Shown piece after piece: positions 15,536-58,589 of a stretch of 64,000 nt of DNA. Position 1 is the first letter of the stretch, and every line of letters begins with the position of its first letter. Origin of the DNA: an uncultured Clostridia bacterium (GTDB lineage: Bacteria; Bacillota; Clostridia; Christensenellales; UBA1242). A model generated the notes under the pieces. The model did no database searches. It had not been told where the DNA came from and saw nothing but the letters and a program-made list of their open reading frames with translations. The DNA is taken from positions 12,890-76,889 of the forward strand of contig CALWTF010000005.1 in assembly GCA_944384415.1 (NCBI GenBank), read 5' to 3'. Made by a program: the position numbers and the translations under genes.

Positions 15536-15536
15536 A

Positions 15537-16253: not shown

Positions 16254-16278
16254 ATAAAAATAAAAAAGCACACAGGTG

Positions 16279-18223: not shown

Positions 18224-18253
18224 TTGACAGTTGGGAATGCTAAAAGGTAATAT
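18224..18253 (+). promoter_or_regulatory. Sigma-A-type promoter for tRNA-Arg (possibly reading on into the giant operon)
   Basis: TTGACA (18224-18229), 18-nt spacer, TAATAT (18248-18253). Confidence 0.5.
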
Positions 18254-18299: not shown

Positions 18300-18376
18300 G
18301 CTTCCGTAGCTCAGATGGATAGAGCAGTGCCCTCCTAAGGCAAAGGTCAGCCGTTCGACTCGGCTCGGGAGCACCA
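18300..18376 (+). tRNA. tRNA-Arg (anticodon CCU), CCA encoded
   Basis: Acceptor GCTTCCG/CGGGAGC (one U-G pair). D-arm gctc-agatggat-agagc. Anticodon loop CT[CCT]AA. T-arm agccg-ttcgact-cggct. 3' ACCA. Confidence 0.9.
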
Positions 18377-18475
18377 TTTTGTCTGAATAATCAATTTTAA
18401 TCTTTAAATTAAAAAATGTGGGTTTTTGGTTATTTTTTTAAAATAGACAAATGATAAAAATAGGGAGTTTGATTT

Positions 18476-21400
18476 ATGAGTTTTGGTTTAAGTATAAAAA
18501 TAAAAAGAATCCTAATGATTATTTGTTTGTGTGTTTTTGCAGGTGCTTTTTTGGTTGCCTGTGGTGAAGATGATGATACAATCCATGTTGATGGTGTTAC
18601 ATTGAATTATGAAACATACAAAGTAGTCGTAGGTTCGAAGTTTCAGTTAGTAGCAAATGTTATTCCTGATGAAGCTACAAATAAAAAACTTTATTTTAGA
18701 AGTGGTAATACAGGTGTAGCTTTTGTTGATAGTAATGGATTGGTTACTGGTGTTAAAACGGGAACAACACAAATATTTGCTACATCAGATGATGGGAAAT
18801 TTGAAGCTAACTGTATTGTTGAAGTTGTTGATGCTAAAGTAAAATTGGGTACTCCTCAAAATTTAAGATATGATTCCAATTCAAATGCTTTAGTTTGGGA
18901 CGCTATAACAGATAATGTAAATGGTTATTCAGCTAAGTATAAAGTTAGGGTTATATCTGATGGTGTGACAAACGAATATGAAACATTAACAAACTCATTT
19001 ACTGAAATTGGTGTTAATAAAGCTATTGAGCCAGGCAAATTATGTTCTGTTAGTATTAAAACAATTGGAAATGAATCTTATTACAACGACTCAGATTATA
19101 CCAATTCATATCAATTTGAAATTCTACCAACTCCATCAGGTAATCCAACCGTTGTAAATGTTGGAGAAAAGAATTTTATTACTGTAAATGCAGTTAATGG
19201 ACAAGAAGTTTCTAGTTATCAGTTGGTTATAACAAGATATATAAATGGTGTTGAGCAAGCTTTATCTGAAAAAGATGAAAATTTATTTAAAACCGATGAA
19301 TATTTGACTAATAATCCACAATTAATAGAAAACTCTCAAGTTCGTTGGGAGATTCCAGAAGATTTATCTGAAGGTACTTACATATATAAAGTCTGCTTAA
19401 AAGGTGATAGTTCAAACAATATTTTTGATTCAAAATTTGTAAGTGGATTATCTAACCTTATTAAATTAGGTGCTCCTACAAGTCTTGCTTTATCTGGTAC
19501 AATTGTTTCGTGGACACCAGTGAATAATGCTTCGGGTTATAGAATTTATATTTATAGTAATAATGAATTAAAGTGGTACAGTCAAACTCCAATAAGTGCT
19601 TATGCTACTTCGTATGATGTAAAAAGTAACATTTCAAACTTGGAAAACTATTTAGTTTATATGAAATCAGTTGGAAATGGGTTTAATATTGTTGATAGTG
19701 CATTAAGTGCAGAATGTGCAACACAAACTTTGGACACCCCTTCAAATTTAATAATGACAAAAGGTGAGGGGGATAGATATACATTAACTTGGGACGCTGT
19801 ATCAAATGCTGATGGTTATAAAATTTATGTAAACAATTATGAATACACTATTGGTGGAGATGTTGCTGAATATGTTTTCTATTCAACAAACTTTAAAATT
19901 GGTGGGAACAGTGTTCAGGTTATGGCTACTTCATCAGCTTTAAATTTAAAAGATAGTAGTAAAAGTGCTACTTATACAGTAACCAAACTTGCTTCTCCAA
20001 CTCTTTATACTAGTGGAGGAAATGTTATTTGGACAGCGGTTGCTGGTGCAACTGAATATGAGATAGTTATCAACAGTGTGTCTACAAGTGCATCAAATTC
20101 TTTAACTTATGATAGTTCGATAAACAGTTTTGAATTAGGTGAGGAGTTTAGCCCTGGTGATTATAATATAAATATTTATGCAAAGGGGAATGGCTCAAAT
20201 ATAATAGATAGTATTGTTTCGGAAGATGTAACCTATACAAAATTGGGTAGTCCAACAAATTTAAGAATAACTTCTGAAAATGGTACAGATTATTTAAGAT
20301 GGGCTTATGTAGATGGCGCTACTAATTATCAAATTGAAATTCATAAATCATCAACTAATGAAACTAATTATGTAACAACTCAAGGTCTCTCATATGCTAT
20401 ATCAAATTATATGTCAACTTTTGCATATGGTGAATATACTTTTAGAATAAGAACTTATGGTTCTAGCAGTGCATCAATTTATTATTTAAATTCTGGTTTT
20501 ACTGATTCAATAAATGCTTTCAGACTTGGCACACCAGATGGCTTGGGTATTGAAAATGGTATAATTACTTGGAATGCATTGAATTATGCTTCTATGGGTA
20601 TTGATTCAAGTTTGTTTAATTATGAAGTAAAAATTGATAATACAAAGAGAACTGTTGAAACAAATTCGTATGATACAAATGTTGGTTCAGTAAGTGCAGG
20701 TACTAAAGCTGTAAGTATTCGTGCTGTTATTGTAAATGAGGGAAAAGTTAATGATAATCTTTATTTATTATCATCAGGTTATTCATCTGTTGTAACAATG
20801 AATAAATTATCATCTCCTACCAATATTAGAATGACTGATACTGGTGCTTTGGTGTGGGATAGCGTAATTTCACAAGATAGTACTGAAATTGGTAATTACA
20901 CTGTAATATTTACTTATTCAAACGCGACTGAATTTAGTTATCAAGCTACAAGTAATGAATGTCCAAACAGTATAGTATCTGATGTTAAATCGTTTGGAAA
21001 AGTTAATGTTCGTATAATTGCTAACGGGGGAAATGGTTATTTAAATTCGCAAAGATCAACTTTAGTAACTTATACTAAATTAGCTACTCCAACATTAACC
21101 GTTAATAATGGTGCTTTAAGTTGGGATTATGTAAACGATGGTGATGGTCGTTCGGTTTTGAATTATAAAGTTTTTGTTAAAGAAGAAGGAGCAACGGTTG
21201 AAACCCCTTATGATATTAGTGGTGCTAATATTTGGGATATGGCTTCAATTACTGGCGGAAAAAGATATGAAGTTTCCATAATGGCAGTTGGAAGTGGAAG
21301 TTATGTGTTGAACAGTGCAAAAAGTGGTTCAATTCAAGTTACAAAACTTATTGCTCCAGATGCAAGCACTATTCGTGCTACTAATGATTTAGAGGGTATT

Positions 21401-24400
21401 CAGTGGAGTGTTACACAGACTGACCAATCATTTACTTATGATGTTGTGATAAATTACATAACAGCTACAAATGAAGTGAAAAATATGGGTACTATAAACA
21501 CTGCTCAAAATGCATACTTTAATTTCCCTGATAACACTGAATGGGCTGGTGGTACTTATCAAGTAAAAGTTAGAACAAAAGCTCCTGCTGGTTCTCGAAC
21601 AATAAACAGTAATTATTCTGAAGTTGTTGAAGTTATAAGATTATCAACTCCTACTGGTTTAACTGTAAGCAATAGTATTCTGACATGGAATGAAGTTGCA
21701 AATGCAACAAACTATGATGCTAAATTAAAGTTGGGTACTAATGATTATGTTAATTATCGTGATTTGGTTAATCAATCTACAAGACAGTTACAATTGGCGA
21801 ACAACACAGATGAGGAATACAAAGAAATAGCTGAATTCGTTGGGTCAATCACTATGTGTATTAAGGCGTTAGCTTCAACATCAACAAGTTCAGGAAGTAT
21901 TATTATTAATTCTGCAACAAGTTTAACAAAATCTATTGAAAGATATGCGGACCCTACTATAACAGTTAATGATGATAATGAAATAGCTTGGTCATCAGAA
22001 TTGGATAGTGTTAATGGTCACATTTTATACTTTACACCTACAAGTGGTGGTGCTACTATTAATGTAAATTTGGCTAGTGGAATAAACACTTTTGATATGA
22101 ATACATCTGTTGAATATAACGGAAGTTATTTGCAAATAAATACACCTTACTATGTATCTATTCAAGCACTAGGAGATGGAATCTCTACTTTAAGTTCACC
22201 GATATCAGAAGCTTATACATATCCAGTTATAAAATTGATTGCACCTGACCAAAAAATTGGTGAAGATAATAATGTTGTAAATGGAAATTGGCGTGTTGAA
22301 AATGGTGTTCTTGTTTGGGATTTAATAACTGGTGCAACTAGTTATATTGTTGAAGGTTATGATGAATCTGGAAATTATTATAATTCTGGAAATATAGAAT
22401 CAATTAGTGGTTCAGATGTTGCAGAATGTTTACCAACTTATCCAGAAATTGGTGGTAGATTAACTTTTACAATAACTTCAGTTGGTGGTTTAACAGAAGA
22501 TTATCATTATATAAATTCTGAGCCTTCAGTTTCTTCAACAATAAACAAATTAGCAACTCCAAGTGATTTGCGTGTTGAAAATGGTGAAATTGAATGGGAA
22601 AGAAGAAAGACTGGTGATGGAACTAGAGATGTTGTTTCTGAAATAACAGATGAAAGTAGTAATAAATATACTATTTTATCTGACTATGCTGTTAGTTATA
22701 ATAATACAATTATTTTGATGTCTGACTATATAACAACTTATGTTGCAGATGGAACAAAGGCAATAGATGCAATATTTAAAGTTAGTGATTTCTTTGAAAA
22801 TGAAGCAACAGTTTCTGTTAGTGTAAGTGCTATTGGAACAGTTGATTCAACTAATGTTCCACTTGAAAATGTTTATTTAAGCAGTAATTCAACAGATACA
22901 ATAGATGTTTTAATTGGTGGACAACCAACAAATTTAAGAATTGAAAATGGTGTTTTGGTTTGGACTGATATAAGTTCAGTAAAAGATTTTGAATTAGTGC
23001 TTGAAGGACAAGATAGAACTGTTGTGTATACAACTAATTCTTATTCTGACTTACAAGGATATTCTAGCAAATTATATGATTCAGTTTATGTTAGACACGC
23101 TGGTACATTATCGGGATATTCAGGTTCATCTGTAAATTCTAGAACTTCAAATGTGTTAACTAACATACAAAAATTGCCTTCTATATCATCATATGGGATT
23201 GATGAAGATGGTGACTTTATTTGGGAATATTCAGCAGACTATGTTAGTGAAGATATGAAGAGAGGATTAGTTTTATCCGTTGATAATGATGATGAAAATT
23301 CTGTTAACATAAATCAATTTAAGTACACTTTAAATGTTAACTCAGATGACATTCAAGATGTGAGAACATATTTAATTAGCGGTTATGTTCCTGGTTCAAC
23401 TGAAGTTAATGATAGCGGTACAAGTTATTTAAAATCTGATACCTTCTCGTTCAATACATATAAGTTTGCAAGTCCTTTAAGCGTAGGGTTTTTAAACGGT
23501 TTGGTATTTACATGGAATGTAAATGATTTAATCATAAGTGTTGATGGTGAAGATAATGTTCGCAATAATAAATTTATTGTACAATATCAATTTAAAGAAT
23601 TTGGAACAGCTGATGGTGCTTGGGGTGAATGGCAAGAATTTGTTTTTGAAGATGTAAATAAAATGAGTATGTCAGATTTGGGTGAATATAATATTCGAGT
23701 ATGTGTTGCAAGTTCTGATGTTAATATTTTAAGAAGTGAACCAACAAGTTACGATGGTAAATTTTCATTCAACAAATTTGAAAGTGGAAATGGTTCACCT
23801 GAAAATCCATTTGTTATAAGCTCAACAACTGCAACTGCTTCAACAGAACTTTCAACTGCAGAAGAAAAGTTGGCATATATTTATGTTTTAAACGATAAAT
23901 ACTTTAGGTTAGCTGAAGATATTGATTTGCATTTAAGTGTATCTGCAAATGAAACTACAAATAACGGTGCTACCATATTTGAAGGTAACATAAATATTCC
24001 ACATTATGAAGATGGTTCTTTTGATAACACATTTACAGGTGGTTTAGATGGTGATGGACATTCTATTAATAATTTCCGTTGTACTAATGTGACAAGAACT
24101 GCTTTATTTAAGTCAATTTTGGGTAGATACAGAACTAACAGTGAAGGTGTTCAATATAACGCATCAACTTGTTTAAGTGACCCAACAGGTTTTTACGGAA
24201 GAAGTGGAATTATAATTGATTTGACATTAAATGCCTTAACTCCAACAGCTTCAGTTGATGATGAAGACCAAGATGTATTATTGTTCTATGGTACTACAGC
24301 TGAAGATGGAATTGCTTTTGTAAGCCACTACAGTTATGGTGGTTGGTTAGTAAATACTAATGTTACATATAAAGATACAAGCTTAAGATATACAGAACTT

Positions 24401-25336
24401 GATTTAACTAATGCAACAAACTATTATGGTGGTCTTGTATGCTATATGTATAGCTTTGTAGATGATAGTTCATACGAGTATTTAGATGCTAGAATTATTG
24501 GTTGTACAGTAGATGTAGATTTACAATTTTATACTCAAAATGCTGGTGTTAATTTATATGTTGGTGGGTTAGTTGGTGTTAACCAAGGTGGAAGTATTAT
24601 TGCATCAATAAATAAAGGTAACTTAATGGCTAGTGGTATTGGTGGAATAGTATATCAAAATGAAGTTGCTTCAAGGTCTGCAAGTAATCTTTATTATTAT
24701 GGAACTGTAAGTGGTTGTGAAAATTCAGCAAGTTTACGGGGATTACCTTCAACAGGCAACTACGGAAGAGTTGGTGGAATTTGTGCTTTGAATTCTTCAT
24801 TTGTATTGTCAAGTAAAAATTCTGGACAACTTTCAGTAACAAATTATCACGAATTAATGGCAAAAGATGAAACAGTTTCTATTCCACAAGTTTCTGCATA
24901 TGTTGGTGGAATAGTAGCTTGGAATGCTTCTGGTAACTATTATGTGGCAAACTGTTTGAATGTAGGAGCATTAAACATAAGAATTAGTGAAAATATTGCT
25001 GTTGGTTATGTTGGTGGAATAGTTGGTGAAAATGGAAACAATAATGCTACTAATATTGTAGGTTGTTTATTTGATAATTCATTAACATTCAACAACGAGT
25101 CTCAACCATGGGCGGTAATTGGTAATCAACCAACTCAAGCAACTAATGCATCTTGTGATACAGTAACATTAAAAAGTACAGAAAACTTTACAGAAAATCA
25201 AACAATTGTACAATATCTAAATACTATAACAATTACATTGCCAGAAAATTTATATAATACTTTAGGCATAAGTAGTGTATTTACACAAGAAGAAGGTTTT
25301 TATCCTGTACTTGAAAGAAAGTATGGTTTAAATTAA
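18476..25336 (+). CDS. Giant surface lipoprotein (2,286 aa): Big_2-like domain, about 17 FN3-like modules, C-terminal GLUG-type repeat region
   Basis: Uninterrupted 6.9-kb ORF with RBS AGGGAG. Lipoprotein signal ...GAFLVAC|GEDDD. Ig-like Big_2 pattern at aa 36-118. Modules of about 85-100 aa open with L-[GAS]-[ST]-P and carry W..V..A..Y (aa 124, 331, 419, 505, 590 and onward). From about aa 1766, GNGSPENPFVISS... is followed by repeated GG[IL]VG motifs. Confidence 0.9.
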   Translation: MSFGLSIKIKRILMIICLCVFAGAFLVACGEDDDTIHVDGVTLNYETYKVVVGSKFQLVANVIPDEATNKKLYFRSGNTGVAFVDSNGLVTGVKTGTTQIFATSDDGKFEANCIVEVVDAKVKLGTPQNLRYDSNSNALVWDAITDNVNGYSAKYKVRVISDGVTNEYETLTNSFTEIGVNKAIEPGKLCSVSIKTIGNESYYNDSDYTNSYQFEILPTPSGNPTVVNVGEKNFITVNAVNGQEVSSYQLVITRYINGVEQALSEKDENLFKTDEYLTNNPQLIENSQVRWEIPEDLSEGTYIYKVCLKGDSSNNIFDSKFVSGLSNLIKLGAPTSLALSGTIVSWTPVNNASGYRIYIYSNNELKWYSQTPISAYATSYDVKSNISNLENYLVYMKSVGNGFNIVDSALSAECATQTLDTPSNLIMTKGEGDRYTLTWDAVSNADGYKIYVNNYEYTIGGDVAEYVFYSTNFKIGGNSVQVMATSSALNLKDSSKSATYTVTKLASPTLYTSGGNVIWTAVAGATEYEIVINSVSTSASNSLTYDSSINSFELGEEFSPGDYNINIYAKGNGSNIIDSIVSEDVTYTKLGSPTNLRITSENGTDYLRWAYVDGATNYQIEIHKSSTNETNYVTTQGLSYAISNYMSTFAYGEYTFRIRTYGSSSASIYYLNSGFTDSINAFRLGTPDGLGIENGIITWNALNYASMGIDSSLFNYEVKIDNTKRTVETNSYDTNVGSVSAGTKAVSIRAVIVNEGKVNDNLYLLSSGYSSVVTMNKLSSPTNIRMTDTGALVWDSVISQDSTEIGNYTVIFTYSNATEFSYQATSNECPNSIVSDVKSFGKVNVRIIANGGNGYLNSQRSTLVTYTKLATPTLTVNNGALSWDYVNDGDGRSVLNYKVFVKEEGATVETPYDISGANIWDMASITGGKRYEVSIMAVGSGSYVLNSAKSGSIQVTKLIAPDASTIRATNDLEGIQWSVTQTDQSFTYDVVINYITATNEVKNMGTINTAQNAYFNFPDNTEWAGGTYQVKVRTKAPAGSRTINSNYSEVVEVIRLSTPTGLTVSNSILTWNEVANATNYDAKLKLGTNDYVNYRDLVNQSTRQLQLANNTDEEYKEIAEFVGSITMCIKALASTSTSSGSIIINSATSLTKSIERYADPTITVNDDNEIAWSSELDSVNGHILYFTPTSGGATINVNLASGINTFDMNTSVEYNGSYLQINTPYYVSIQALGDGISTLSSPISEAYTYPVIKLIAPDQKIGEDNNVVNGNWRVENGVLVWDLITGATSYIVEGYDESGNYYNSGNIESISGSDVAECLPTYPEIGGRLTFTITSVGGLTEDYHYINSEPSVSSTINKLATPSDLRVENGEIEWERRKTGDGTRDVVSEITDESSNKYTILSDYAVSYNNTIILMSDYITTYVADGTKAIDAIFKVSDFFENEATVSVSVSAIGTVDSTNVPLENVYLSSNSTDTIDVLIGGQPTNLRIENGVLVWTDISSVKDFELVLEGQDRTVVYTTNSYSDLQGYSSKLYDSVYVRHAGTLSGYSGSSVNSRTSNVLTNIQKLPSISSYGIDEDGDFIWEYSADYVSEDMKRGLVLSVDNDDENSVNINQFKYTLNVNSDDIQDVRTYLISGYVPGSTEVNDSGTSYLKSDTFSFNTYKFASPLSVGFLNGLVFTWNVNDLIISVDGEDNVRNNKFIVQYQFKEFGTADGAWGEWQEFVFEDVNKMSMSDLGEYNIRVCVASSDVNILRSEPTSYDGKFSFNKFESGNGSPENPFVISSTTATASTELSTAEEKLAYIYVLNDKYFRLAEDIDLHLSVSANETTNNGATIFEGNINIPHYEDGSFDNTFTGGLDGDGHSINNFRCTNVTRTALFKSILGRYRTNSEGVQYNASTCLSDPTGFYGRSGIIIDLTLNALTPTASVDDEDQDVLLFYGTTAEDGIAFVSHYSYGGWLVNTNVTYKDTSLRYTELDLTNATNYYGGLVCYMYSFVDDSSYEYLDARIIGCTVDVDLQFYTQNAGVNLYVGGLVGVNQGGSIIASINKGNLMASGIGGIVYQNEVASRSASNLYYYGTVSGCENSASLRGLPSTGNYGRVGGICALNSSFVLSSKNSGQLSVTNYHELMAKDETVSIPQVSAYVGGIVAWNASGNYYVANCLNVGALNIRISENIAVGYVGGIVGENGNNNATNIVGCLFDNSLTFNNESQPWAVIGNQPTQATNASCDTVTLKSTENFTENQTIVQYLNTITITLPENLYNTLGISSVFTQEEGFYPVLERKYGLN
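18581..18830 (+). other. Big_2-like bacterial Ig domain within the 2,286-aa protein
   Basis: IHVDGVTLNYETYKVVVGSKFQLVANVIPDEATNKKLYFRSGNTGVAFVDSNGLVTGVKTGTTQIFATSDDGKFEANCIVEVV matches the classical Big_2 pattern (V.G....L.A.V.P..A.N..v.W.S.n..vA.Vd..G.vtg...G.a.I.a...dg....). Confidence 0.75.
23770..25336 (+). other. C-terminal GLUG-motif region (about 520 aa) of the 2,286-aa protein
   Basis: Entry motif G-x-G-S-P-E-N-P-F-x-I followed by ...YFRLAEDIDL, then YVGGLVGVNQGGSII, GIGGIVYQNE, RVGGICALNS, YVGGIVAWNASGN and YVGGIVGENGNN. This pattern matches GLUG repeat regions of large Firmicutes surface proteins as I recall them. Confidence 0.6.
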
Positions 25337-25368
25337 AAAACTTCTGACAAATATTTTGGAGGATTAAA

Positions 25369-31300: not shown

Positions 31301-34300
31301 TGCAATTTGTGACTGCAAATGGTCAACCAATTGGAAATAATTTATCATATTTTACTAATGGAGAAATTCCAAGTGATTATGTTGAAAAGATAACAGTTTA
31401 TATTGATTATGACCGTCAATATGCTAGCTGGCAAATGGCTGGTAGAACATACGAGCAAGAAGTTCAATACATTTCTGGTTCTGGTAATAAAATTATAAAA
31501 GTTGATTTTACACCTTTATTAAACGGAAGGGTAGCAGGTCCTTATTATTTGGCAATTTATACTGTTGCTGACCCTGCAAAATTTATTACAACAAATGGTA
31601 ATGCAACCACAAGTTCTTTGCAATTTACCTACAACAAGGCATATTCACCGGTAGAAAACATTGAGTTTGGTTTTGATAATGAAGGTATTGTACAAACAAT
31701 TTCTTGGGATGGTGCTCTAGATGCTGATGGAAGTTGGGTACACGAATATGCTTATTTTGAATTGCAAGTTTGGAAAACGGTTGGCGAAGGTGAAAATCCA
31801 TTATTAATTTCATTAAGTGGTAATAACGATAAAAGTTTAAATTGTATTTTTGAAAATGTTGAAGGAATTCAAAGTGTTTCAAATCGTTTAACAAGTATAA
31901 CTTATGATGAAGATACTAACAGAATAACTGTTAATATAGGTTCAGTATTCAGACAATATTTAGTTGAAAATGGTATTAGAATTGGTGGAGATTATACTGT
32001 AGGAATTGTTGTTATACCAGCAAGTTCAAGTAAATCATCATTTAAAGAAAGTACTCAGGCGACTGCATCTTTTGCTCACAAAGTTAAACTAGAGTTTGAC
32101 CAAAGTGTAAGCTATACAAGTTTTTTAATTGATGATTGCTTAGATGAAAGTGCATCACAAAATAATCGTGAACCAAGTTATATTGAAGACAGTGTTAATA
32201 CTGCAAACATTTATTTGTCAAATCCTGATGTTAATGGCAATTTTAATATTAAATCTATTAATATACTTCAATGGTTACCAGCTGTTCAATCAACTTCTAT
32301 AAAGGTTTATGTTAAAAATAGTGCTGGTGAATGGGTTGAAACATTGCAGTTTGACAATATAAATATTCAAACTAATAACCTTGTATTGTTAAGTGGAGGA
32401 ACTGTTCAATTACAATCAGGTAAAAATGAATTAGCAATTCAAGCTGTAGGTATTAATAATTATTATGTGGCAAGTGAATTAAAAACTTTTACAGTTAATG
32501 TTTATTATAAACACGCAACACCTACATTAAGTTTTGATATCAATTCAGATATTGTTTATACTAATGCAAGTGAAACATTTAGTGGAACGGTTAGTTCTTT
32601 AACATTACATCTTGATGACACTTGGGCAGAAAAAGAATATGGTGTTGTTATTTATGCTTATAAAGTAGTTGATGGCGTATATGAACCATATTTAGCATGG
32701 CAAACATCTGATGCGAATGGTGATGATGAAAATAACAGATTGATTTGGAAAGTTTTAAACGGAACAGCTTGTTTTGTTTATCCAGATACATATAAAGATG
32801 TTAGTAAGCGTGGAAAAGTAGTTAACTTTATGGACTTCTTCTATGAAAACGCAAATCAAACATCTGGAACTAATAAAATGGTTTCTTTAGTGGGCGCATA
32901 CGATTATGTTTTCCGAGCAAAAATATTTGCAAAGAAATCTGATTCAAGCGAACAATATATGTTAAACAGTGAGTTTTCAAATATAACTAATATATTTAAC
33001 TATACATATCAAATGGAAACACCAACTCCTTATGTTTTTGATTATGAAGGAACAAAGGAAATACACGAAAATGTAATTCGTGATGGAAATAACAGTGCAA
33101 CAGCTGTTTATGTAAAGTGGCCAATTGACCAAACTAATTTTAAAAGTGTAATTCAATATACTATTACAGTTTGGGATGGACAAGATAAAATTGATGAACC
33201 ATTTGAACGAGGAAATGGAAACCCAAATAATGCTGGAAATACGGTTGAATATTCTGCTTATATTCAAATATATTATAACGAAAATGGTGTTGCAGAATAT
33301 AGCCTTTATGCAGTTACTATGAAGACATATAAAGGTTCAGCAACAACAATAAGCGAATCGCAATACGGAAGATATTTCCAAATACAAGATGGTTATGTAG
33401 TGTTTAATATGATGCCATTTATTGAATCTACACAAAGGGTAGATCAATATATTTCAGGTGTATATAGATATCACATTCAAGCCGTTCAGGGTAGTACTAT
33501 GATTGGAACATCTACATCTGTTGGTTTAAGAGTTAATAATTATATGAATATAAGTCAGTTTGCTGGAGAATATTTTAGCGGAACTGATGTTGAAAATTCA
33601 AATTTTGATTATTACTACGAGTATCAACACAAAGTTCCATATCCTGTAACATTTACAAATGCTGTTGTTGATAATTCTGGTAATTTGGCAATTACATTGC
33701 AAGACACATACGCAACTGCTGAAACGATAGTTGTTACAGTTAATGGCAAGCAAACCATTTATAGTATTGAAACTCCTACAAGTAGCAGTACAACATATTA
33801 TGTAAATATTTCAACTTTATTATTACCAGGCGATGCAAATTCAGTTAGCATTTATATTGGTGCAGTTGAATTTTATATGCAAGGTAATCCTTATGAAGTA
33901 ACCCTTGGTTTTGATGAGTGGTCAACCGAGTTAACAACCTTGCGTGATTTACAATGGACATATAATGCTGGTAGTCACGAGATTTCTTGGAATGTAAACT
34001 TTAACAGTAATTACACTGAAGACCCAAGGTTAGATAGTGGTGATGGCGTTTTAGATGCAGATTTATTACATTATAAATTAGAGGTATTATACTCACCAAA
34101 TTTAATTAGTAACACAGAAGATTTACCTGCTAATTCTATGTTTGATTATTTTGCTACACAACTTGGTGTTGAAAAATTAACAATAGAAAATTTACAAAAT
34201 GTAGAAGGGCAAACTATAATAAAATTTTCACCACAAACAAGAAATTATATGTTTAATTTGATTGATTGTGTAAAATTAATTGATAATAGTTGGCTTGAAG

Positions 34301-37300
34301 AAAATGCATTGCGTGGTGGTTGGTATATGTTAAGATTAACATTAACAGCTAAAGACACTAATGGTATTTCTCCAAGTGGAACCGAAAATTATTTAGATGC
34401 AGTAAGTTATATAACGCCAATGATTAAACAAGTTTTAGCACCTTGGAAAATGTCTACATCGGGTGATTTTTGGGCTGCACAATCAGATTATGTATTTAAA
34501 GATACCGATAATCCAACTTTATCTCAAAAAGCAAATTGGGCAGATAACCGTGATGTAAATTGGGGAATAAAATTTACAGTTCAACCAGTATCTGGAAATT
34601 ATCCAACAACTTATCGTGTGTTCTATTGGAGAGATGGTTCTACTACTCCATTTGAAAACTATTTTGAAGTTACAGGTGAAAATGTTACATTAAATGGTGG
34701 ATATGTTTATTTGAATTTGCGTTCAGGATTTGCTAGTGTAGTTCAAGCAGGTGTATATAACTTTGCTTGGCAAGCATTGGGCGTTGCTGATTGTGCTGAA
34801 GATTCAGAATATTCATACATTTTAAGTGCAACAGCTTATCAATCTATGGATGTTCCATTAAGTTTATCTGCTTATGGTGGTTTTGGTTTAGCAAATTATG
34901 TAAGGGTTTCAGTTCCAACTTTATCTGAAACATTGTCAAACCAAACTCAAAGAAGTTGTATGATTACTTGGACTTATATCAATAATACTGGTGAATCATC
35001 TATAGACCTTTCATTTAGTGCAAGCTTAATGAATTTTGTTGGAAATGATTTACAAGATGGTCAAACTTATCCAACTGGAGTAAACGGATATGGGCCAGTA
35101 ACTGCTACAAATGAAAGAAATTATAGTTACTTTAAAAATGGTGATACAACATTAAATATGATTGAAGGTGATAATTACATTTCAATTAAAGCTGTTGTAT
35201 CTGGAAGAAATGGATATTATCTTGATTCAAGTTGGAGTACATTAAAAAAATATACTTGGGAAGTTGTTTTAAGCGCTCCTGAAATTGATATTTATGGAAC
35301 ATCTTTGACTGCTTATGATGAAAACCAAGCATATACTTACAGAACAATTCCTGAAAATGAAGAAAGTATTACAACTGACACAGTTAATGCTGTTGACACA
35401 GTAGACCGTGGTGGTCGCCGTGAAACAGAAGATTATCAGTCAACATATACAAATATGTTAACTATGTCTGTAAAAGTAAGTAAAGAATCTGTTTTAGATA
35501 ATATTACTTTACTTGAAATTATGTCTTTTGACCCAGTTACTAACTCTTTATTCTCACAAAATAATGCATTATGTCACTACTTAGTAAAAGGTGATTTAAC
35601 AACTGGTTTATGTTATTTGTATCAGAAAAAGAACATTCAATATACCAATAATGCAATTAACAGTGAGGAATGGGTTGATGCCGATGGGCGAGAAATTGGT
35701 ACTTGTTCGTTAAATGCTGATGAATCTGTAACATTTATGATTAATGGTTTTAAAATTTACGAGTTGTTACCAACAGTTACATATGTAAATGTAAAAGTTA
35801 AAACTGAAACAGGTGAAGAAACAACATTTACAGGAACTAAAGATTTTGCCAATATTCCTCAAACATATCGTTTTATAATGCGTTCATACAGTGAACTTAC
35901 AAGTTCAGAAGATTCTGGATTTAACTATAATCATACTTTGCGTTTAATTGCTCCAGAAGTTACAGAAGTAAACTTTACAGGTTCAAGTATTGAAGTGTTA
36001 GATGGTCAAAAATTTATAAACAATGATTTGCAACAAAGTTATGAAATTGTTTTAAATATTGATAAGGTTTCAAGAAATGCTAAATGGCTTATGCTTTATG
36101 CCTATGTTGACCAAGAAAATGGAAATAACTATTACAATGTAGACACTGGTTATAATGCTGAATATTCTATGACAAATTATGATGATTTGCGTTCAAATTG
36201 TTTAATTTATGATATTCGTGGTTTAGTTAATTTTGAAAACAGCAAATCAACTTATGGAACGATAACTTTAACTATATTGAAAGATAGTAGTTTATGGGAA
36301 TTTATAAATGCAAATACTCCTAATGTGTTCTATTTCGCTGCACAGGCAGTAAGTGAATTAGGTTATGCTGAAGACCCAACGGTTTGGGAAGGTGATTGGT
36401 ATGATGATTATACATTAGACAAAGTTCAGCTTTCGCAAATGCAATTAAGATATTGTGAGTCATATATAGGTCAACCTATGAATTGCATTATTTATAGACA
36501 ATTTGAGGAAGCACAAATTAATTTAAAACTTGATTATGGTCAAGTTTCAACAAATGAACAACCAACAGCACTTACCGATTCAAATGTTAAACAAACTGTT
36601 AAATATAATAATTCTGATTTATCAACCAATCTTGCTATTGATAATTTAGCACTTGACCCATATTTAATTGTTGAAGAAAATGATTATGCAAACGCATTGT
36701 TGTCTCACGAATATGTTGAAGCACAAAAATATGCAGGTTATGAAATTACCGTTGGTTTACCAAGCGGTTTAGAAAAATCTAAAACTGTTTATTCAATGAT
36801 GAATGAAGAAGGTGCCCAAGGTTCAGGTTTAATGGATGCAACAACATTATTTGACCAACTTAACAGCACTAATCCTGCAAGATATTATTTTGAAGGAAAT
36901 AATTATGTTTGCGTAACTATGCTTGAGGACCCTTGTATTTATGATTTATTATTCTCGTTGTTTGCAGAAAACAAAACTGAGGCAACTATGACCGGCGGTG
37001 TTTGTTACATAAAAATAAGAATTATAAGAGAAACAAGAACAACAGTTAGTAAATCGAAAAATTTCTGGGTTTCACAAGATAATTCTGATTTAGATACATT
37101 AGATTTTGTGTTCTACTTAAGACCTGATGCTGTTAAGTTAACTTTAGGTAATGCAGTTTTTGATGCTTCTAATCCTTTAGTTGTGGATTGGGAAACAACA
37201 AATAATGAAAATGAGTTGTTATACCCAAACAATATTCCATTACAATGGACAGAAAGTTCAAAGTTTATGAGCACATATAAAATTTCAATTTTAAGAACAA

Positions 37301-39609
37301 CTGCAACTCAAGGTATGGGAATAAACTTTGTTTATAACTTTGACCAAGGCGCAGCAGCTTATGGCAAAACCTCGGTAAACTTAGCTGCTCCTTCAACTGG
37401 TTGGGGTGGAAATAAATCTATTTATGGTGAATTAACTGCTTCAACAAGATTTAATAATTGGGATGAAGACCAAGTACATCAAAGCAGACAACAGGCAACT
37501 GTTTATGAAATATTTATTGAAACTAATGCTATTGTAGATTCAACAGTAACTGCATCTAGCAAATGTATTGGAAAATCATATTTGTCTGGTGCTGCTGATG
37601 GTTACTTGAACACAGAAAATGTTACATATTATAACTTACAGTTAAAATATAATGTATATAATGATATAGTTTTAAAAAGTTCTGGAACTGAAAGTTCAAC
37701 AGTTGATTTAACTGGTGAAAGGGCTACAATGGGTAGTGTAAATAATGGCTACAGTGTTTCATTTAACACTAGAACCAATGGAAATGCTGGTGCAAGTATA
37801 TCTTTAAATTATGCAGGAACTTTTGATTATATGGCATATACTACTGTTGAAGCTACTGGTCCATTTACTTATAAAAACAATGGTGGAAGTTTTGTTGCAG
37901 TTCAAGCTACTAAGAATAAAACTGTTGAAGGTTTTAGTGCATTAATTTTGCGTGATGCAATAAATAATTTAATTGGTGAAAATGGTGGAGCTGGTGGTGT
38001 TTATACAATTAGCTATCATATAAGTTACACTCAATCTGGAACTTGGAATGAAACAACCCCATATTTAAGCAGTGAAGAAAGTAGAACATTTACTTATGAA
38101 TATTTCAGATTAGTTGATAATGCTCAAATGACAGTTATGCAATCAGGTGATGGTGTAAACTTTAGGTCTAGTTATCAAGCAACAGCAAATTCATTCTCTT
38201 ACACCTTCTATGGTCACTATTCAATTGATATGTATCAAGTTAATGCTAATACAAACTCAAAAGTGCAAACCAGAACTTATATAGGAGGGTTTGACCCATA
38301 TTCAGTTGTTGGTGGAAACGGTACATCTGGAAGTAATTCGTATTATTACAAAGCTTTTGATGATACCAAGTGTGATGCATTAAGTGACAGAGCTATTTCA
38401 AATGCTTCAAGTTTCACGAGTAATTGCTATACCTATTTCCCTGGTTATATTCAAGGTGGAAAAAATCAATTTATCTATACAATAACAGCTGGTGATACAA
38501 AATATAACTTAAAATATCAAGGTTTAGTAACATTAGATGAGTATATGATTTTAAGTTCATATGCTCAAATGGTGCAAGCAGAATATGGTTCAACACACAC
38601 TGCAACATTAGAAGATTATCACACTGAATATTCTGCAGAAGAATATTTGGTAGATTTTGATGGTTTATCTCATGCTTATGTAGTAACAAACAATAAAGTT
38701 AGTGCAAATCTTTCAGAGCTTATTTCAACAGTAACAATGATGTATGCTAACGCTTTCTCATACAGTTACAGTTTAAGTTATTCTTCCTATGCAACATCAA
38801 CACAAAGTGATTATAGTGGTGAATATCAGGTAATAACAAAAAACACAAGTTCGAAATCCGATTCAGGAAAAACCACTTATTCTAAAACAAAATCCGGTGT
38901 AACTGAAACTATTGCACTAGGGGATAATTGCTATAAGGTTACAGGTGCAACATTTAGTGTAAGTTGTAAGTCTGGTTTTGCAAGTGTTATTGAAGAAGGT
39001 GGAACTAGTACAATAACTTTGACAGATAAGTTAGTTAGTATATCTGCTGGCGCTTCAGAAACTCAAACTATATTGGAAACAAGAGTTAGTATTGTTCCTT
39101 CACCTTTGGTTTACGGCAGCGGAGTAGCTCAGGAGAGTTTTACAGCAAAAGCTGATATAGAAATTACAAAAAATGCATTAGCTTACTATAGAAGTGATTT
39201 TTCATTAGTTGTTAATTACTCAGAGTCAGGAAGCACAACCCATTATTGGACACACAGACACGAAAATAAAGTTACAGGTTTGTTTGGTTCAGAATGGCTT
39301 TGGACTATCAGTAGTGAAAGTTCCCCAGGCGGTTCGTTTAGTTGCAATGAAGTGATAACTTTAGATGCAAAGCAAAAAGAACAAAAAATTGTTAAATCAG
39401 TAACAACATTAGAAGAAACAAAGAAAAGACCTAATGATAGTAGTGGATTTTGGACTAAAGAAGTATATTATGATGAATATGTTGAATATACAAGGAATTA
39501 TACATTTAGTGCACAGTTGAATGCTACTAATAAGTCTAATCCTGAGGGTGGAACAACATATATACCTGCTCATCACTCGTCTTCTGGTCTTGCTGGTTTC
39601 TTAAATTAA
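25369..39609 (+). CDS. Giant membrane-anchored surface protein (4,746 aa) made of many diverged FN3-like modules
   Basis: Uninterrupted 14.2-kb ORF starting 32 nt after the previous stop, with RBS GGAGGA. The N-terminus is MSKYKPRGRGRKNS plus one TM helix (aa 17-38, nt 25417-25482). Then come modules such as ISWNEVNGADSYEIYLQ, LSWNKINNASSYRVYLYQ, LSWAPVENALTYKVYIND and LSWLPVENASNGYIVMING. No LPXTG, SLH or choline/cell-wall-binding repeats were recognised. Confidence 0.9.
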   Translation: MSKYKPRGRGRKNSLPTIGAIILVILLVGIICLFGLIFRPSSESSSGPLNTPENIQVYKTGSDEEGWKYFVSYDEVKGSDKYVIHIDDMFTTSSSATVTDITKFITDAKVYSIGVQAVNNKISSYSSSIVYTEYSNAMQLATPQVTRQNETFLWGSINNATSYTLEVSYGSTVDEYSVTTPNFDLSPILNATKDDPTATKFTVKVKASYSGDLLWLESNYSNSVEYVITKTLANPILTYFTDSVVEEEEVKILHKISWNEVNGADSYEIYLQKLGSSYELIQTLIHPIELEFDLTNYVSEVGNYSVYIKAISDQEYTISSSSSTQQFIITHKLATPMITEAIAEGEYMKVSWVPGDDLNLQTHYYLELYNANTNAIVLGVDVYGTNYSFLLSTIPEGAYRMVVTAKHNTQPNLYIDSEPSTSVDRNIEPKITSPSQIIYVQEKPSSTASLSWNKINNASSYRVYLYQIVGEQEVPFGNVINQTGNTLTLPFTTAGIYYVKVMALATESSFYQDSDYSEATECLFREYLGKTTSISMNDDNTILSWAPVENALTYKVYINDVEIEATIQDTSATNMGEIFSNVELYPSSETVPYRISVRAIGEDGGIYADGEVETIYFYLIRKLDMPTGLSYEQTPNTNEVTLSWLPVENASNGYIVMINGVAPVELQNITETTCSIGSYLLPGTNNILIGANQCTNYAASNYASFETNPTFTYYMQPLSNFSITADVVEGSVTYYASFTTHKYANFYLFNFYASTGDVYTGQSAQRIYSTSNEIVTFVVDYEWIKRYDDCITTVEILTAYDENLQGSTESNFNPAYIIGDGKNTSYSHSVTTYYTYTNESVLVMIDGNSVEIEETSMTSRKISWLYPTSYIENTSMFYITITKIDAVNGNSSSNYVVVASSGVESDIEGYQKFTWLFENLDVGEYTVKLQAISSNPNIANSGSTFANFVLSIQQQKPDGLNIKYDETSGDIVAVWNMIPTHQSFTSYYVQLYVIPKDSSEPILVQQWNSRTSTGSTQNIIQINFSTEISESNKNKTIEENMVSGQYYITVKANAYGDYYLESETAEMTEYFEYDAVVDAPTVLINQENETALIEYQKDTNYMLYYMAPNTEQYVQMSPTNSLQTINDVKYRVYNLSSVFNQSSFSVGIYLISAVAVKVFGETETVSSANSVPVEFKVMKNFDSASFENVELVYEYLNGQDVSTFEASWMQVTVEDGAVNATDYEIDVYSGSSNYLRNIKVQLENNNYVVYMYNVQSDTWNKYSHTNINSSLNTKTYNYIVDGNYKFTLSEITEESGIKMLLKVYDLSDFTVGTTYNVIIYTLASEEHYYKQSLTYGYKSFKFMAKWLPPTISFVDSATSSKLPEKYIEANSTTISFDTTANGTSNVKYTFTVYITNLLTGIASEFTTSGSTMANVGTVFVIDESMLSDAGLYRIEAKIVNTTKVESRCSSPIYIYNALNMESPVLTRVTKAETQSSTPSPLGDGSYEKDINLNWTFNGYQFVADLDSETYADFISGLGFILNIVEIDENGNIVQNGLSAQIPISSSMFETTDWQNFNFTVLLDNYPALSNYFWSKQWADGESKTHYAFTLQAISYPTYITGIVQNEVSNGYIDVIENYIPHFQTGVFEISGDDYLYYFNKNSDIYTLIVRRDNVLSLTSNITLENNGDIVTITWDVVTDPTGTTEVGYKFVYYTIGYDNTYILYYSKDGSTNENSMVSQQVYYYNNNFYTDQNHTTVITFDNTGVFMGENTWFDAQDVNGFSIVNQTQPLVYGVWVYCYPMAGESASIAASGVYYQTVVRTVQFNMPTSISWSVFTDDTGTQHELSFANNIQQQINNANINNYTSLYTLTLGGFVIGTNDWSNKTPSLNNGNFVAYITELYNANSFVEYQDENGITHSRLYDWQLNAKDYSLSVYDPNVEGGIATHILYSSNTSSGQCYRSIVIERNVPANDTTTFIIENGSYYAQWNEISDATIYEMQFVTANGQPIGNNLSYFTNGEIPSDYVEKITVYIDYDRQYASWQMAGRTYEQEVQYISGSGNKIIKVDFTPLLNGRVAGPYYLAIYTVADPAKFITTNGNATTSSLQFTYNKAYSPVENIEFGFDNEGIVQTISWDGALDADGSWVHEYAYFELQVWKTVGEGENPLLISLSGNNDKSLNCIFENVEGIQSVSNRLTSITYDEDTNRITVNIGSVFRQYLVENGIRIGGDYTVGIVVIPASSSKSSFKESTQATASFAHKVKLEFDQSVSYTSFLIDDCLDESASQNNREPSYIEDSVNTANIYLSNPDVNGNFNIKSINILQWLPAVQSTSIKVYVKNSAGEWVETLQFDNINIQTNNLVLLSGGTVQLQSGKNELAIQAVGINNYYVASELKTFTVNVYYKHATPTLSFDINSDIVYTNASETFSGTVSSLTLHLDDTWAEKEYGVVIYAYKVVDGVYEPYLAWQTSDANGDDENNRLIWKVLNGTACFVYPDTYKDVSKRGKVVNFMDFFYENANQTSGTNKMVSLVGAYDYVFRAKIFAKKSDSSEQYMLNSEFSNITNIFNYTYQMETPTPYVFDYEGTKEIHENVIRDGNNSATAVYVKWPIDQTNFKSVIQYTITVWDGQDKIDEPFERGNGNPNNAGNTVEYSAYIQIYYNENGVAEYSLYAVTMKTYKGSATTISESQYGRYFQIQDGYVVFNMMPFIESTQRVDQYISGVYRYHIQAVQGSTMIGTSTSVGLRVNNYMNISQFAGEYFSGTDVENSNFDYYYEYQHKVPYPVTFTNAVVDNSGNLAITLQDTYATAETIVVTVNGKQTIYSIETPTSSSTTYYVNISTLLLPGDANSVSIYIGAVEFYMQGNPYEVTLGFDEWSTELTTLRDLQWTYNAGSHEISWNVNFNSNYTEDPRLDSGDGVLDADLLHYKLEVLYSPNLISNTEDLPANSMFDYFATQLGVEKLTIENLQNVEGQTIIKFSPQTRNYMFNLIDCVKLIDNSWLEENALRGGWYMLRLTLTAKDTNGISPSGTENYLDAVSYITPMIKQVLAPWKMSTSGDFWAAQSDYVFKDTDNPTLSQKANWADNRDVNWGIKFTVQPVSGNYPTTYRVFYWRDGSTTPFENYFEVTGENVTLNGGYVYLNLRSGFASVVQAGVYNFAWQALGVADCAEDSEYSYILSATAYQSMDVPLSLSAYGGFGLANYVRVSVPTLSETLSNQTQRSCMITWTYINNTGESSIDLSFSASLMNFVGNDLQDGQTYPTGVNGYGPVTATNERNYSYFKNGDTTLNMIEGDNYISIKAVVSGRNGYYLDSSWSTLKKYTWEVVLSAPEIDIYGTSLTAYDENQAYTYRTIPENEESITTDTVNAVDTVDRGGRRETEDYQSTYTNMLTMSVKVSKESVLDNITLLEIMSFDPVTNSLFSQNNALCHYLVKGDLTTGLCYLYQKKNIQYTNNAINSEEWVDADGREIGTCSLNADESVTFMINGFKIYELLPTVTYVNVKVKTETGEETTFTGTKDFANIPQTYRFIMRSYSELTSSEDSGFNYNHTLRLIAPEVTEVNFTGSSIEVLDGQKFINNDLQQSYEIVLNIDKVSRNAKWLMLYAYVDQENGNNYYNVDTGYNAEYSMTNYDDLRSNCLIYDIRGLVNFENSKSTYGTITLTILKDSSLWEFINANTPNVFYFAAQAVSELGYAEDPTVWEGDWYDDYTLDKVQLSQMQLRYCESYIGQPMNCIIYRQFEEAQINLKLDYGQVSTNEQPTALTDSNVKQTVKYNNSDLSTNLAIDNLALDPYLIVEENDYANALLSHEYVEAQKYAGYEITVGLPSGLEKSKTVYSMMNEEGAQGSGLMDATTLFDQLNSTNPARYYFEGNNYVCVTMLEDPCIYDLLFSLFAENKTEATMTGGVCYIKIRIIRETRTTVSKSKNFWVSQDNSDLDTLDFVFYLRPDAVKLTLGNAVFDASNPLVVDWETTNNENELLYPNNIPLQWTESSKFMSTYKISILRTTATQGMGINFVYNFDQGAAAYGKTSVNLAAPSTGWGGNKSIYGELTASTRFNNWDEDQVHQSRQQATVYEIFIETNAIVDSTVTASSKCIGKSYLSGAADGYLNTENVTYYNLQLKYNVYNDIVLKSSGTESSTVDLTGERATMGSVNNGYSVSFNTRTNGNAGASISLNYAGTFDYMAYTTVEATGPFTYKNNGGSFVAVQATKNKTVEGFSALILRDAINNLIGENGGAGGVYTISYHISYTQSGTWNETTPYLSSEESRTFTYEYFRLVDNAQMTVMQSGDGVNFRSSYQATANSFSYTFYGHYSIDMYQVNANTNSKVQTRTYIGGFDPYSVVGGNGTSGSNSYYYKAFDDTKCDALSDRAISNASSFTSNCYTYFPGYIQGGKNQFIYTITAGDTKYNLKYQGLVTLDEYMILSSYAQMVQAEYGSTHTATLEDYHTEYSAEEYLVDFDGLSHAYVVTNNKVSANLSELISTVTMMYANAFSYSYSLSYSSYATSTQSDYSGEYQVITKNTSSKSDSGKTTYSKTKSGVTETIALGDNCYKVTGATFSVSCKSGFASVIEEGGTSTITLTDKLVSISAGASETQTILETRVSIVPSPLVYGSGVAQESFTAKADIEITKNALAYYRSDFSLVVNYSESGSTTHYWTHRHENKVTGLFGSEWLWTISSESSPGGSFSCNEVITLDAKQKEQKIVKSVTTLEETKKRPNDSSGFWTKEVYYDEYVEYTRNYTFSAQLNATNKSNPEGGTTYIPAHHSSSGLAGFLN

Positions 39610-39635
39610 AAGTTATTTTAACTTGTTTTTAAATA

Positions 39636-39672
39636 AAAAGAAGTATAAAGTTTAAGTTTATACTTCTTTTTT
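39636..39672 (+). terminator. Strong Rho-independent terminator of the giant operon
   Basis: Perfect 14-bp stem aaaagaagtataaa / tttatacttctttt with loop gtttaag and a T tail. Confidence 0.85.
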
Positions 39673-39720
39673 ATATATCTAAACAATTTTTAACATTAAG
39701 TAGCTAATAAAAATGGTAAC

Positions 39721-49719: not shown

Positions 49720-49741
49720 AGAAGCGGAAGCTTCTTTTTTA
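49718..49741 (+). terminator. Rho-independent terminator of the aspS-cysS operon
   Basis: agaagc-ggaa-gcttct followed by tttttt. Confidence 0.65.
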
Positions 49742-49777
49742 TGTTTAAATAATATATTTTTGTTAACAATTTAATAT

Positions 49778-50242: not shown

Positions 50243-50305
50243 AAAAATTATTTTTTATGTTTAAAAATTTTTAAATTGTTAATGATTTAAACAAAGGAGG
50301 TTGCA

Positions 50306-58566: not shown

Positions 58567-58589
58567 TAGTTAGGGGAGAGTGTTGAATT

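Follow-up and report, generated by a model that had tools for sequence, protein, structure and literature searches.

A conserved pair of giant, N-terminally anchored proteins with diverged fibronectin type III modules in an uncultured gut Clostridia lineage

A 64,000-nucleotide (nt) stretch of the genome of an uncultured Clostridia bacterium (contig CALWTF010000005.1; the whole stretch is hereafter the window) carries two adjacent genes, ORF1 and ORF2, that encode proteins of 2,286 and 4,746 amino acids (aa). Both proteins are predicted to be tethered at their N-termini, one through a lipid and the other through a single transmembrane (TM) helix, and both continue outward into arrays of old, diverged fibronectin type III (FN3) modules. 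The best reading of these features, and one that we consider reasonably probable, is that the two are co-expressed long-reach adhesins whose FN3 stalks would span the cell wall, adhesion being the role that the evidence supports best.

The genes and the signals that frame them are listed here with their window coordinates.

18476-25336, + strand: ORF1, predicted giant surface lipoprotein of 2,286 aa; full-length homologues at 22-48% identity.
25358-25363, + strand: ribosome-binding site (RBS) of ORF2, GGAGGA, from sequence.
25369-39609, + strand: ORF2, N-terminally anchored, predicted giant surface protein of 4,746 aa; collinear orthologues of 4,861, 5,148 and 5,265 aa.
39635-39677, + strand: terminator hairpin, AU-rich, with a 15-bp stem and a U-run; -14.7 kcal/mol, z = -4.4; the sequence is identical in two further contigs (L001 and L002).

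Both reading frames are unbroken and the gap between them is 32 nt. A preliminary description of this DNA had reported the same arrangement, with GGAGGA before the second gene, and coordinates and sequence agree with it; GGGAG sits ahead of ORF1. Window G+C is ~30%, and composition shows no break over the locus. A single strong terminator had also been claimed to follow ORF2. Hairpin and U-run are indeed present, but "strong" is generous, as the hairpin proper (39635-39671) has two G-C pairs only, a scarcity that lets it escape a terminator scan based on G+C.

Eight contigs of the same species, with nucleotide identity >99.7%, were retrieved from ENA, Logan and the NCBI metagenome-assembled genome GCA_949289705.1 by exact look-up of the Spo0A protein. 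The 2,286-aa ORF1 is present in six of the eight and the 4,746-aa ORF2 in four, the others stopping within ORF2. Polymorphism indicates that both genes are under purifying selection: in ORF1, where 78% of sites are nonsynonymous, 18 polymorphic sites are synonymous and 15 nonsynonymous (pN/pS ~0.23), and the first 2.7 kb of ORF2 have seven synonymous polymorphic sites and no nonsynonymous one. Intact, equal-length ORFs in independent same-species assemblies, together with this pattern of polymorphism, exclude an assembly artefact or a pseudogene. Interruption of the ORFs in the real genome, a possibility raised beforehand, was not seen, their lengths being the same across same-species assemblies. 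As a separate observation, ORF2 in one contig (L009, 9244-10470) equals the window copy for 812 nt and then continues, from the conserved GADSYEIY motif onward, into in-frame sequence unrelated to it; either the scaffold is chimeric or the allele is recombinant.

ORF1 can be divided into four parts.

18476-18562, + strand: lipoprotein signal peptide with lipobox LVAC (Cys29), from sequence; the sole hydrophobic window of ORF1.
18587-18820, + strand: Big_2 Ig-like domain (aa 38-115), Pfam PF02368, E = 4.4e-13.
18845-23749, + strand: array of 15-17 diverged FN3 modules (aa 124-1758), found with a self-built hidden Markov model (HMM).
23768-25333, + strand: C-terminal head (aa ~1765-2286), with a G-x-G-S-x-x-x-P-F-x-I cap and six GG[IL]V-type repeats, from PDB profile and Pfam Glug.

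After an N-terminal basic and hydrophobic signal, the residues AGAFLVAC29GEDDD of ORF1 fit the lipobox [LVI][ASTVI][GAS]C, and Cys29 is invariant across nine full-length homologues in a nine-member alignment. By these marks ORF1 is a bacterial lipoprotein, predicted to be lipid-anchored at Cys29, and the lipoprotein signal first read from the sequence stands. So does the Big_2-like Ig domain, which scores 49.4 bits against a gathering cut-off of 22.8; a PDB profile match of this region is to 7quz (E = 4.9e-16). For the modules that follow, an HMM was seeded on six ORF1 modules and then converged. It recovers 15 modules (E = 2e-7 to 5e-22) and leaves two gaps large enough for two more, in agreement with the ~17 FN3-like modules originally counted and with their starts at aa 124, 331, 419, 505, 590 and onward. 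Mean identity between ORF1 modules is 21% (19-21% for the modules overall). Pfam Tissue_fac reaches 31.1 bits on them (cut-off 27), and Pfam fn3 (PF00041), which is weak on the window ORF1 alone (E ~0.04-0.12), is matched in three of nine ORF1 homologues. When an ORF1-family profile was compared with the PDB, FN3 structures were matched from tenascin (1tdq, 4.9e-4), 3mpc (7.8e-4), titin (2.5e-3), fibronectin (1fnf, 7e-3) and neogenin. As judged from profile homology, the ORF1 modules are fibronectin type III domains.

The last 520 aa of ORF1 open with F-E-S-G-N-G-S-P-E-N-P-F-V-I and continue with six GG[IL]V repeats, motif echoes of which are visible at the nucleotide level. The family profile matches the solenoid 3N6Z with E = 1.5e-6, a match that covers the domain start only (~125 positions). 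Pfam Glug is found in two of nine homologues (3.8e-7), the window copy falling under threshold (E = 0.14), and 3N6Z has been described as GLUG-related in the ConSole paper (PMC4021314). The ORF1 head is predicted to form a GLUG/3N6Z-like beta-solenoid.

ORF2 can be divided as follows.

25369-25482, + strand: K/R-rich cytoplasmic tail and single TM helix (aa 17-38), a predicted type II signal anchor, from sequence and hydropathy.
25513-27480, + strand: seven consecutive FN3-like modules (aa 49-704), from the self-built HMM, hhalign (95-98% against the module profile) and internal repeats.
27925-28563, + strand: two further FN3-like modules (aa 853-1065), HMM E = 4e-9 and 2e-13, hhalign 83-94%.
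28564-39606, + strand: dark region, rich in beta propensity and non-repetitive (aa 1066-4746), with isolated FN3-like matches and otherwise unassignable.
38416-39606, + strand: most divergent distal tip (aa ~4350-4746), with identity down to 18-33%.

The K/R-rich N-terminus and one TM helix attributed to ORF2 were recovered, aa 17-38 being its single hydrophobic segment; basic tail and helix are kept in ORF2 orthologues and in the distant partner genes at L016 and L017. Each protein has one TM-like window, N-terminal in both, with no other in ORF1 or ORF2. The preliminary picture of one lipid-anchored and one membrane-anchored protein therefore fits, with both tethered N-terminally. Over aa 49-1065 of ORF2, the HMM made from ORF1 modules gives E = 4e-9 to 3e-20 and hhalign gives probabilities of 83-98%, which bears out the claim that both proteins carry the same module type. 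Weaker library matches occur at aa 49-704 (PDB 3mpc, E = 0.015; Pfam GH85_C, 29.5 bits). On this profile evidence the modules of aa 49-1065 are homologous to FN3, nine of them confidently, and about six weaker ones elsewhere in ORF2 bring the number with profile-level support to ~15.

Isolated FN3-like matches continue into the outer region at aa 1644-1827 (54-90%), 2283-2553 (~80%) and 3191-3291 (self-built HMM, E = 2e-13). The module signature had been thought to recur there in weakened form at two places, both of which fall in or near FN3-like stretches: the echo at nt 30375 (aa 1649-1690) is upheld by an hhalign probability of 86-90%, whereas that at nt 31261 (aa 1960-1982) reaches only ~30%. 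Conserved W...Y-x-h-x-h units at FN3 spacing number nine in aa 705-4746, where column shuffles give 2.4 +/- 1.6, and all dark tiles have the same Chou-Fasman beta propensity and beta hydrophobic moment as FN3 regions, unlike cytoplasmic control proteins; as signs of further modules, both are no more than suggestive. No internal repeats were found in the dark region at a probability of 60% or higher. Pfam (E up to 5 on tiles), NCBIfam and PDB profiles gave nothing for ORF2 past aa 704, as did Pfam for the orthologue P0207, and a profile of ORF2 had weak FN3, cytochrome and DnaJ matches only in the PDB. Some ~3,000 aa of ORF2 are without Pfam, NCBIfam, PDB or internal-repeat signal. The estimate of 40+ beta-sandwich modules in ORF2 is accordingly an extrapolation that goes beyond the support found, as ~15 have profile support and ~3,000 aa are unassignable and repeat-free. 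A loose regular expression for the F-strand motif was discarded as a module counter, being uninformative (43 matches against ~22 by chance).

Structure prediction did not read this region. AlphaFold2 on ORF2 aa 530-1729 as a single sequence gave a pLDDT of 31.5, a run that is uninformative rather than negative because the two FN3 modules serving as internal controls failed too; on aa 3547-4746 with a four-orthologue alignment the pLDDT was 30.6. At the tip, CxxCxGxG Cys-rich insertions or extensions are present in P0207, P0208 and P0209 (~ORF2 aa 4400-4746) and the window copy has none. These repeats are DnaJ zinc-finger-like, with a weak match to a DnaJ zinc finger in the PDB. The tip is the most variable part of ORF2 and has gained or lost domains, which is what one would expect of a ligand-facing end.

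The relatives of ORF2 are few. An exhaustive HMMER search with aa 3547-4746 against 1.84 billion representative proteins gave three matches (4,861, 5,148 and 5,265 aa); a word-indexed search with the C-terminal 1,200 aa gave none, proteins so long apparently not being indexed. All three orthologues align collinearly with the whole of ORF2 (37-49% identity), with conservation that is even except in the last ~400 aa (18-33%), and two of the three are encoded directly downstream of ORF1 orthologues (P0002 with the 4,861-aa partner, P0003 with that of 5,148 aa). Behind distant ORF1 relatives (27% identity), partner ORFs of at least 6,440 aa (with P0006) and at least 3,134 aa (with P0005) start 20-24 nt downstream; tail, TM helix and FN3 start are as in ORF2, and a remote collinear homology to ORF2 reaches into the dark region. 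By these comparisons at least six lineages conserve the ORF1-ORF2 pair. A survey of related genomes thus finds the pair kept, and with intact copies in at least six assemblies and purifying selection it is, as first supposed, a real and maintained one.

Paralogous modules share ~20% identity, compared with 37-49% between orthologous modules, and the module array therefore predates speciation. No nucleotide repeats were found by TRF or a repeat search beyond motif echoes of 25-35 nt. On this comparison the FN3 arrays are ancient and fixed, and the view that the modules are old, diverged and maintained rather than a recent expansion is sustained by the lack of DNA repeats, the 19-21% module identity and the collinear orthologues.

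A homologue search with ORF1 gave collinear full-length relatives at 22-48% identity and, in a broader set, dozens of metagenomic proteins of 1,900-3,700 aa built on the same plan. In this class a lipobox, Big_2 and many FN3 modules are followed by GGxGSxxxPYxI and a GLUG-type solenoid; its members include P0002-P0009, P0017, P0020, P0023, P0033, P0034, P0046 and P0052, all of them unnamed and metagenomic. These giant Firmicutes lipoproteins resemble ORF1 in whole architecture, the closer ones being collinear with it, but only a subset has an ORF2-like gene downstream. By its architecture ORF1 is a further member of a common, uncharacterised lipoprotein class, and it is less novel because that architecture is common in metagenomes, a point that the preliminary description missed. 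Scans of GTDB genomes, made with ORF2 and with an alignment of ORF1, returned no relative, the one match being to Big_2. A different pairing within the broader class was observed at L018 (4876-9777), where a 1,633-aa protein with no Pfam match precedes P0017.

We compared the anchoring of the pair with that of known systems. A C-terminal LPXTG with hydrophobic segment and basic tail is found in neither protein: LPXTG-like strings are internal only (LPSTG at ORF1 aa 2090; ORF2 aa 681), with no C-terminal hydrophobic window. SLH, CWB2, LysM and choline-binding Pfam domains were not detected even with E relaxed to 5 over 10 tiles, and no HemolysinCabind or similar match gave an RTX signature in ORF1 or ORF2. 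The reported lack of LPXTG, SLH and wall-binding repeats is confirmed, and the anchoring differs, as had been said, from that of classical Gram-positive adhesins, a predicted N-terminal lipid or TM tether standing in place of C-terminal LPXTG and sortase. Sortase-anchored repeat adhesins and periscope proteins (SasG/Aap, Rib, serine-rich repeat proteins) have a C-terminal LPXTG and near-identical, number-variable repeats. In these, as would be the case for ORF1 and ORF2, long beta-sandwich rods hold a functional distal region off the cell; ORF1 and ORF2 differ in their N-terminal anchors, in a module identity of ~20%, in having no near-identical repeats at the DNA level and in lengths that are fixed across strains, and are not of the variable-length periscope type.

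Other systems offer partial parallels. RTX/LapA-type Gram-negative adhesins are secreted by a type I system, carry RTX repeats at the C-terminus and stay held in the outer membrane. They follow the same logic as the one proposed here, with a cell-proximal anchor, an Ig-like extender and a distal ligand-binding region, whereas the export signals of ORF1 and ORF2 are N-terminal and of Sec type, with no RTX match in Pfam. In Mycoplasma mobile, Gli349 and Gli521 are two membrane-anchored surface proteins of several thousand residues encoded by tandem genes; we liken them to ORF1 and ORF2 by this general description alone and as a lead only, and the host here appears walled. The 3N6Z/GLUG domains matched by the ORF1 family occur in a Bacteroides "putative IgA1 protease" and in IgA1 protease N-terminal domains, but ORF1 has no protease domain. 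Giant proteins of Omnitrophota and some Clostridia exceed 30,000 aa and have many TM helices and SecA-like domains (bioRxiv 10.1101/2023.11.21.568195). Like ORF2, they are very large, mostly unannotated and predicted to be extracellular, with attachment as the inferred role; ORF2 differs in having one TM helix and no SecA-like domain.

Two conserved features lie upstream of the pair.

18300-18376, + strand: tRNA-Arg(CCT), directly 5' of ORF1, from ARAGORN and Rfam.
18428-18460, + strand: conserved AT-rich spacer block between tRNA and ORF1, G-TTATTTTT..AAA.T.G.CAAA..ATAAAAA, from a three-species spacer alignment.

In each of the three closest species (L011, L012 and L013), the ORF1 orthologue has the same tRNA-Arg(CCT) directly 5' of it. 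A promoter-like TTGACA-18-TAATAT is located upstream of the window tRNA at 18224-18253, and in the interval from tRNA-Arg to ORF1 neither a terminator-like nor a promoter-like site was found; the ORF1-ORF2 operon is probably co-transcribed with the tRNA. The 33-nt spacer block is nearly invariant in three species (window, L011 and L012) whose proteins there are just 39-48% identical. It is positioned directly upstream of the ORF1 RBS, too near to it for a -10 element, has no match in Rfam, and may be a leader or operator. A role of the tRNA as supplier for AGG codons of the giant genes was ruled out, since AGG codons show no enrichment there. A genomic island inserted at the tRNA was likewise ruled out by the cross-species tRNA adjacency, the uniform composition and the lack of an integrase among the scanned window ORFs.

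The tRNA is preceded by genes for a CDP-alcohol phosphatidyltransferase, SpoIIGA, sigma-E, a sigma-G-like factor (encoded on the other strand) and Spo0A; ORF2 is followed by those for an AAA ATPase, an ABC exporter, AspRS, an ABC-F protein, CysRS and others. The neighbourhood of the pair is one of housekeeping genes. Two large ORFs at 54859-62201 have sizes that would suit RpoB and RpoC. Amidase, peptidoglycan-binding and sporulation genes in the window make the host appear walled. The statement that no sortase or glycosyltransferase is nearby holds for the window ORFs scanned and for the ORFs annotated in same-species loci, where none was found.

Some neighbours deserve a remark in their own right. 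The Spo0A homologue (17329-18093) has a good Spo0A_C domain and a receiver domain of 25.6 bits against a Pfam threshold of 30.2, and its N-terminus (MINFILISPNEM) appears to be without the usual acidic pocket, a hint that its phosphorelay input is degenerate. At 14714-17055, spoIIGA and sigE run in one direction and the neighbouring sigma-G-like gene (16279-17055) in the other; the usual order is a co-directional spoIIGA-sigE-sigG cluster. At 49063-50893, within the housekeeping stretch, a SLOG/STALD-domain protein with weak ThsA-like PADLOC matches (E ~1e-5) is encoded ahead of a DUF1779 protein and an M23 peptidase, and might be a defence-related or nucleotide-sensing gene.

The gene after ORF2 encodes an AAA_5 ATPase of 781 aa (39782-42127), with the terminator lying between the two. 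Its homologues number 689 at ~50-57% identity, the nearest named one (57%) being in Ca. Caccovivens faecavium, of a genus placed in Christensenellales, family UBA1242. Elsewhere the ATPase is part of a unit with a 127-aa protein and a DUF2201 protein, whereas the window ATPase stands alone. In L015 such a unit adjoins an integrase fragment, accompanied by MobL, a serine recombinase and genes of CBASS type; in L019 its neighbour is an apparent tRNA gene. As its homologues sit in unrelated tRNA- or integrase-associated islands, the ATPase was ruled out as a partner of ORF1-ORF2, and synteny of the pair with it, suggested earlier, is not borne out. A PADLOC match of the ATPase to DolB (1.2e-5) is partial and uninformative. 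In L001, the sequence upstream of the ATPase departs from the window exactly after the ORF2 stop codon; L002 ends there. The ABC protein further downstream is set off from ORF2 by both the terminator and the ATPase gene.

If the two are long-reach adhesins, both would be exported by Sec and their N-termini would stay in the membrane. From the lipid on Cys29 outward, ORF1 runs through Big_2 and 15-17 FN3 modules, which would form a rod, to a distal head predicted to be a GLUG/3N6Z-like beta-solenoid. ORF2, held by a predicted uncleaved signal-anchor helix, begins with nine FN3-like modules; beyond this FN3 start come ~3,700 aa of lineage-restricted, beta-rich, non-repetitive sequence with few FN3-like modules and a fast-evolving tip. 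The membrane-proximal FN3 arrays would serve as rigid stalks through the peptidoglycan, replacing sortase or non-covalent wall anchoring; at ~3.5 nm per module, the ORF1 rod would measure ~60 nm and the first nine modules of ORF2 ~30 nm. The solenoid head, and the long distal region of ORF2 with its tip, may then bind, over a long reach, to the mucus or cells of a host, to other microbes or to particles. The lineage is an uncultured gut one within Clostridia, of ~30% GC and with sporulation genes.

Several points weigh against this reading. Expression, surface location and binding are predictions from the genes, as is the envelope type of the host. GLUG/3N6Z-type solenoids have no characterised function, Pfam, NCBIfam and PDB profiles give no recognisable ligand-binding or catalytic domain in ORF2, and the fold of ~3,000 of its residues is unreadable, with both AlphaFold2 runs at pLDDT ~31. 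The 3,511-aa ORF1-like lipoprotein P0017 (L018) has no ORF2-like gene after it. What points to cooperation between ORF1 and ORF2 is linkage only, and the earlier proposal that the two proteins form one joint structure was not upheld, operon linkage and co-conservation being the sole observations in its favour. A bolder proposal would make the ORF2 family, known from ~six lineages at lengths of 4,700 to at least 6,400 aa, an undescribed surface organelle protein whose ~3,000 unassignable residues would be new folds. Paired with ORF1, it would form a dedicated long-range contact apparatus, for instance for attachment to other cells or to a host, in a lineage that is apparently host-associated, and the Cys-rich, zinc-finger-like tip modules, exchanged between relatives, would be its specificity determinants; we think this unlikely.

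The same architecture might also be put to surface-displayed polymer processing, with FN3 modules as spacers and with the solenoid head or ORF2 domains acting as catalysts (lyase, glycosidase or protease) or binding carbohydrate on dietary or host glycans. In glycoside hydrolases and in proteins of cellulosomes, FN3 arrays serve as spacers, and the right-handed beta-helix is a fold often met among lyases and hydrolases. The modules have their weak matches among FN3 types associated with enzymes, namely GH85_C (29.5 bits) and 3mpc, an Fn3-like protein of C. thermocellum; the best PDB match of Big_2 sits in a beta-1,3-glucanase, and the solenoid matches a structure named "putative IgA1 protease". 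However, 3N6Z is without demonstrated activity, Pfam, NCBIfam and PDB profiles reveal no catalytic family in the 7,032 aa of the pair or in the orthologue P0207, and genes for carbohydrate-active enzymes (CAZymes), those resembling polysaccharide utilization loci (PUL-like) and transporter genes are not consistently linked; we give this explanation a low probability. A purely structural role, as abundant constitutive spacers or a sheath forming an S-layer- or glycocalyx-like coat that has no specific ligand and serves to protect the wall or to set the distance from the cell surface, would agree with the constitutive expression implied by possible co-transcription from a strong tRNA promoter, with a chromosomal pair of the same composition as its surroundings in a housekeeping neighbourhood, and with conservation that is uniform along most of both proteins. 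It is nonetheless unlikely: S-layer proteins usually self-assemble via SLH or CWB2 wall-binding domains, of which there are none here, the ORF2 family is limited to few species, and a distinct distal head and a variable, indel-prone tip suit interaction with a ligand better than a passive coat.

The genes for SpoIIGA, sigma-E, the sigma-G-like factor and Spo0A immediately upstream raise the further question of whether the proteins are displayed on the surface of the forespore or of the spore, where they might form appendages or a nap like that of an exosporium. That neighbourhood is not kept, however, since an NTP-transferase gene lies upstream in L012 and unrelated genes in L016 and L017, and only the tRNA-Arg is conserved; no sporulation-sigma promoter consensus was seen by eye in the tRNA-ORF1 spacer, and lipoprotein and signal-anchor tethers fit the vegetative membrane. 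A role tied to sporulation is very improbable.

Giant surface proteins are likely contact organs of uncultured gut bacteria, and most are unannotated. The locus described here provides a strain-verified example of non-sortase anchoring, in which an N-terminal lipid or TM tether is combined with a long FN3 stalk, and it pairs a common architecture (ORF1) with a near-orphan partner of 4.7 kaa that current domain and structure tools cannot read. If the outer region of ORF2 consists merely of further diverged Ig-like rods, the pair would be a routine adhesin pair. Should new folds be present there, or a new mechanism of attachment, the region would define a family and contribute to explaining how the lineage colonises its niche.

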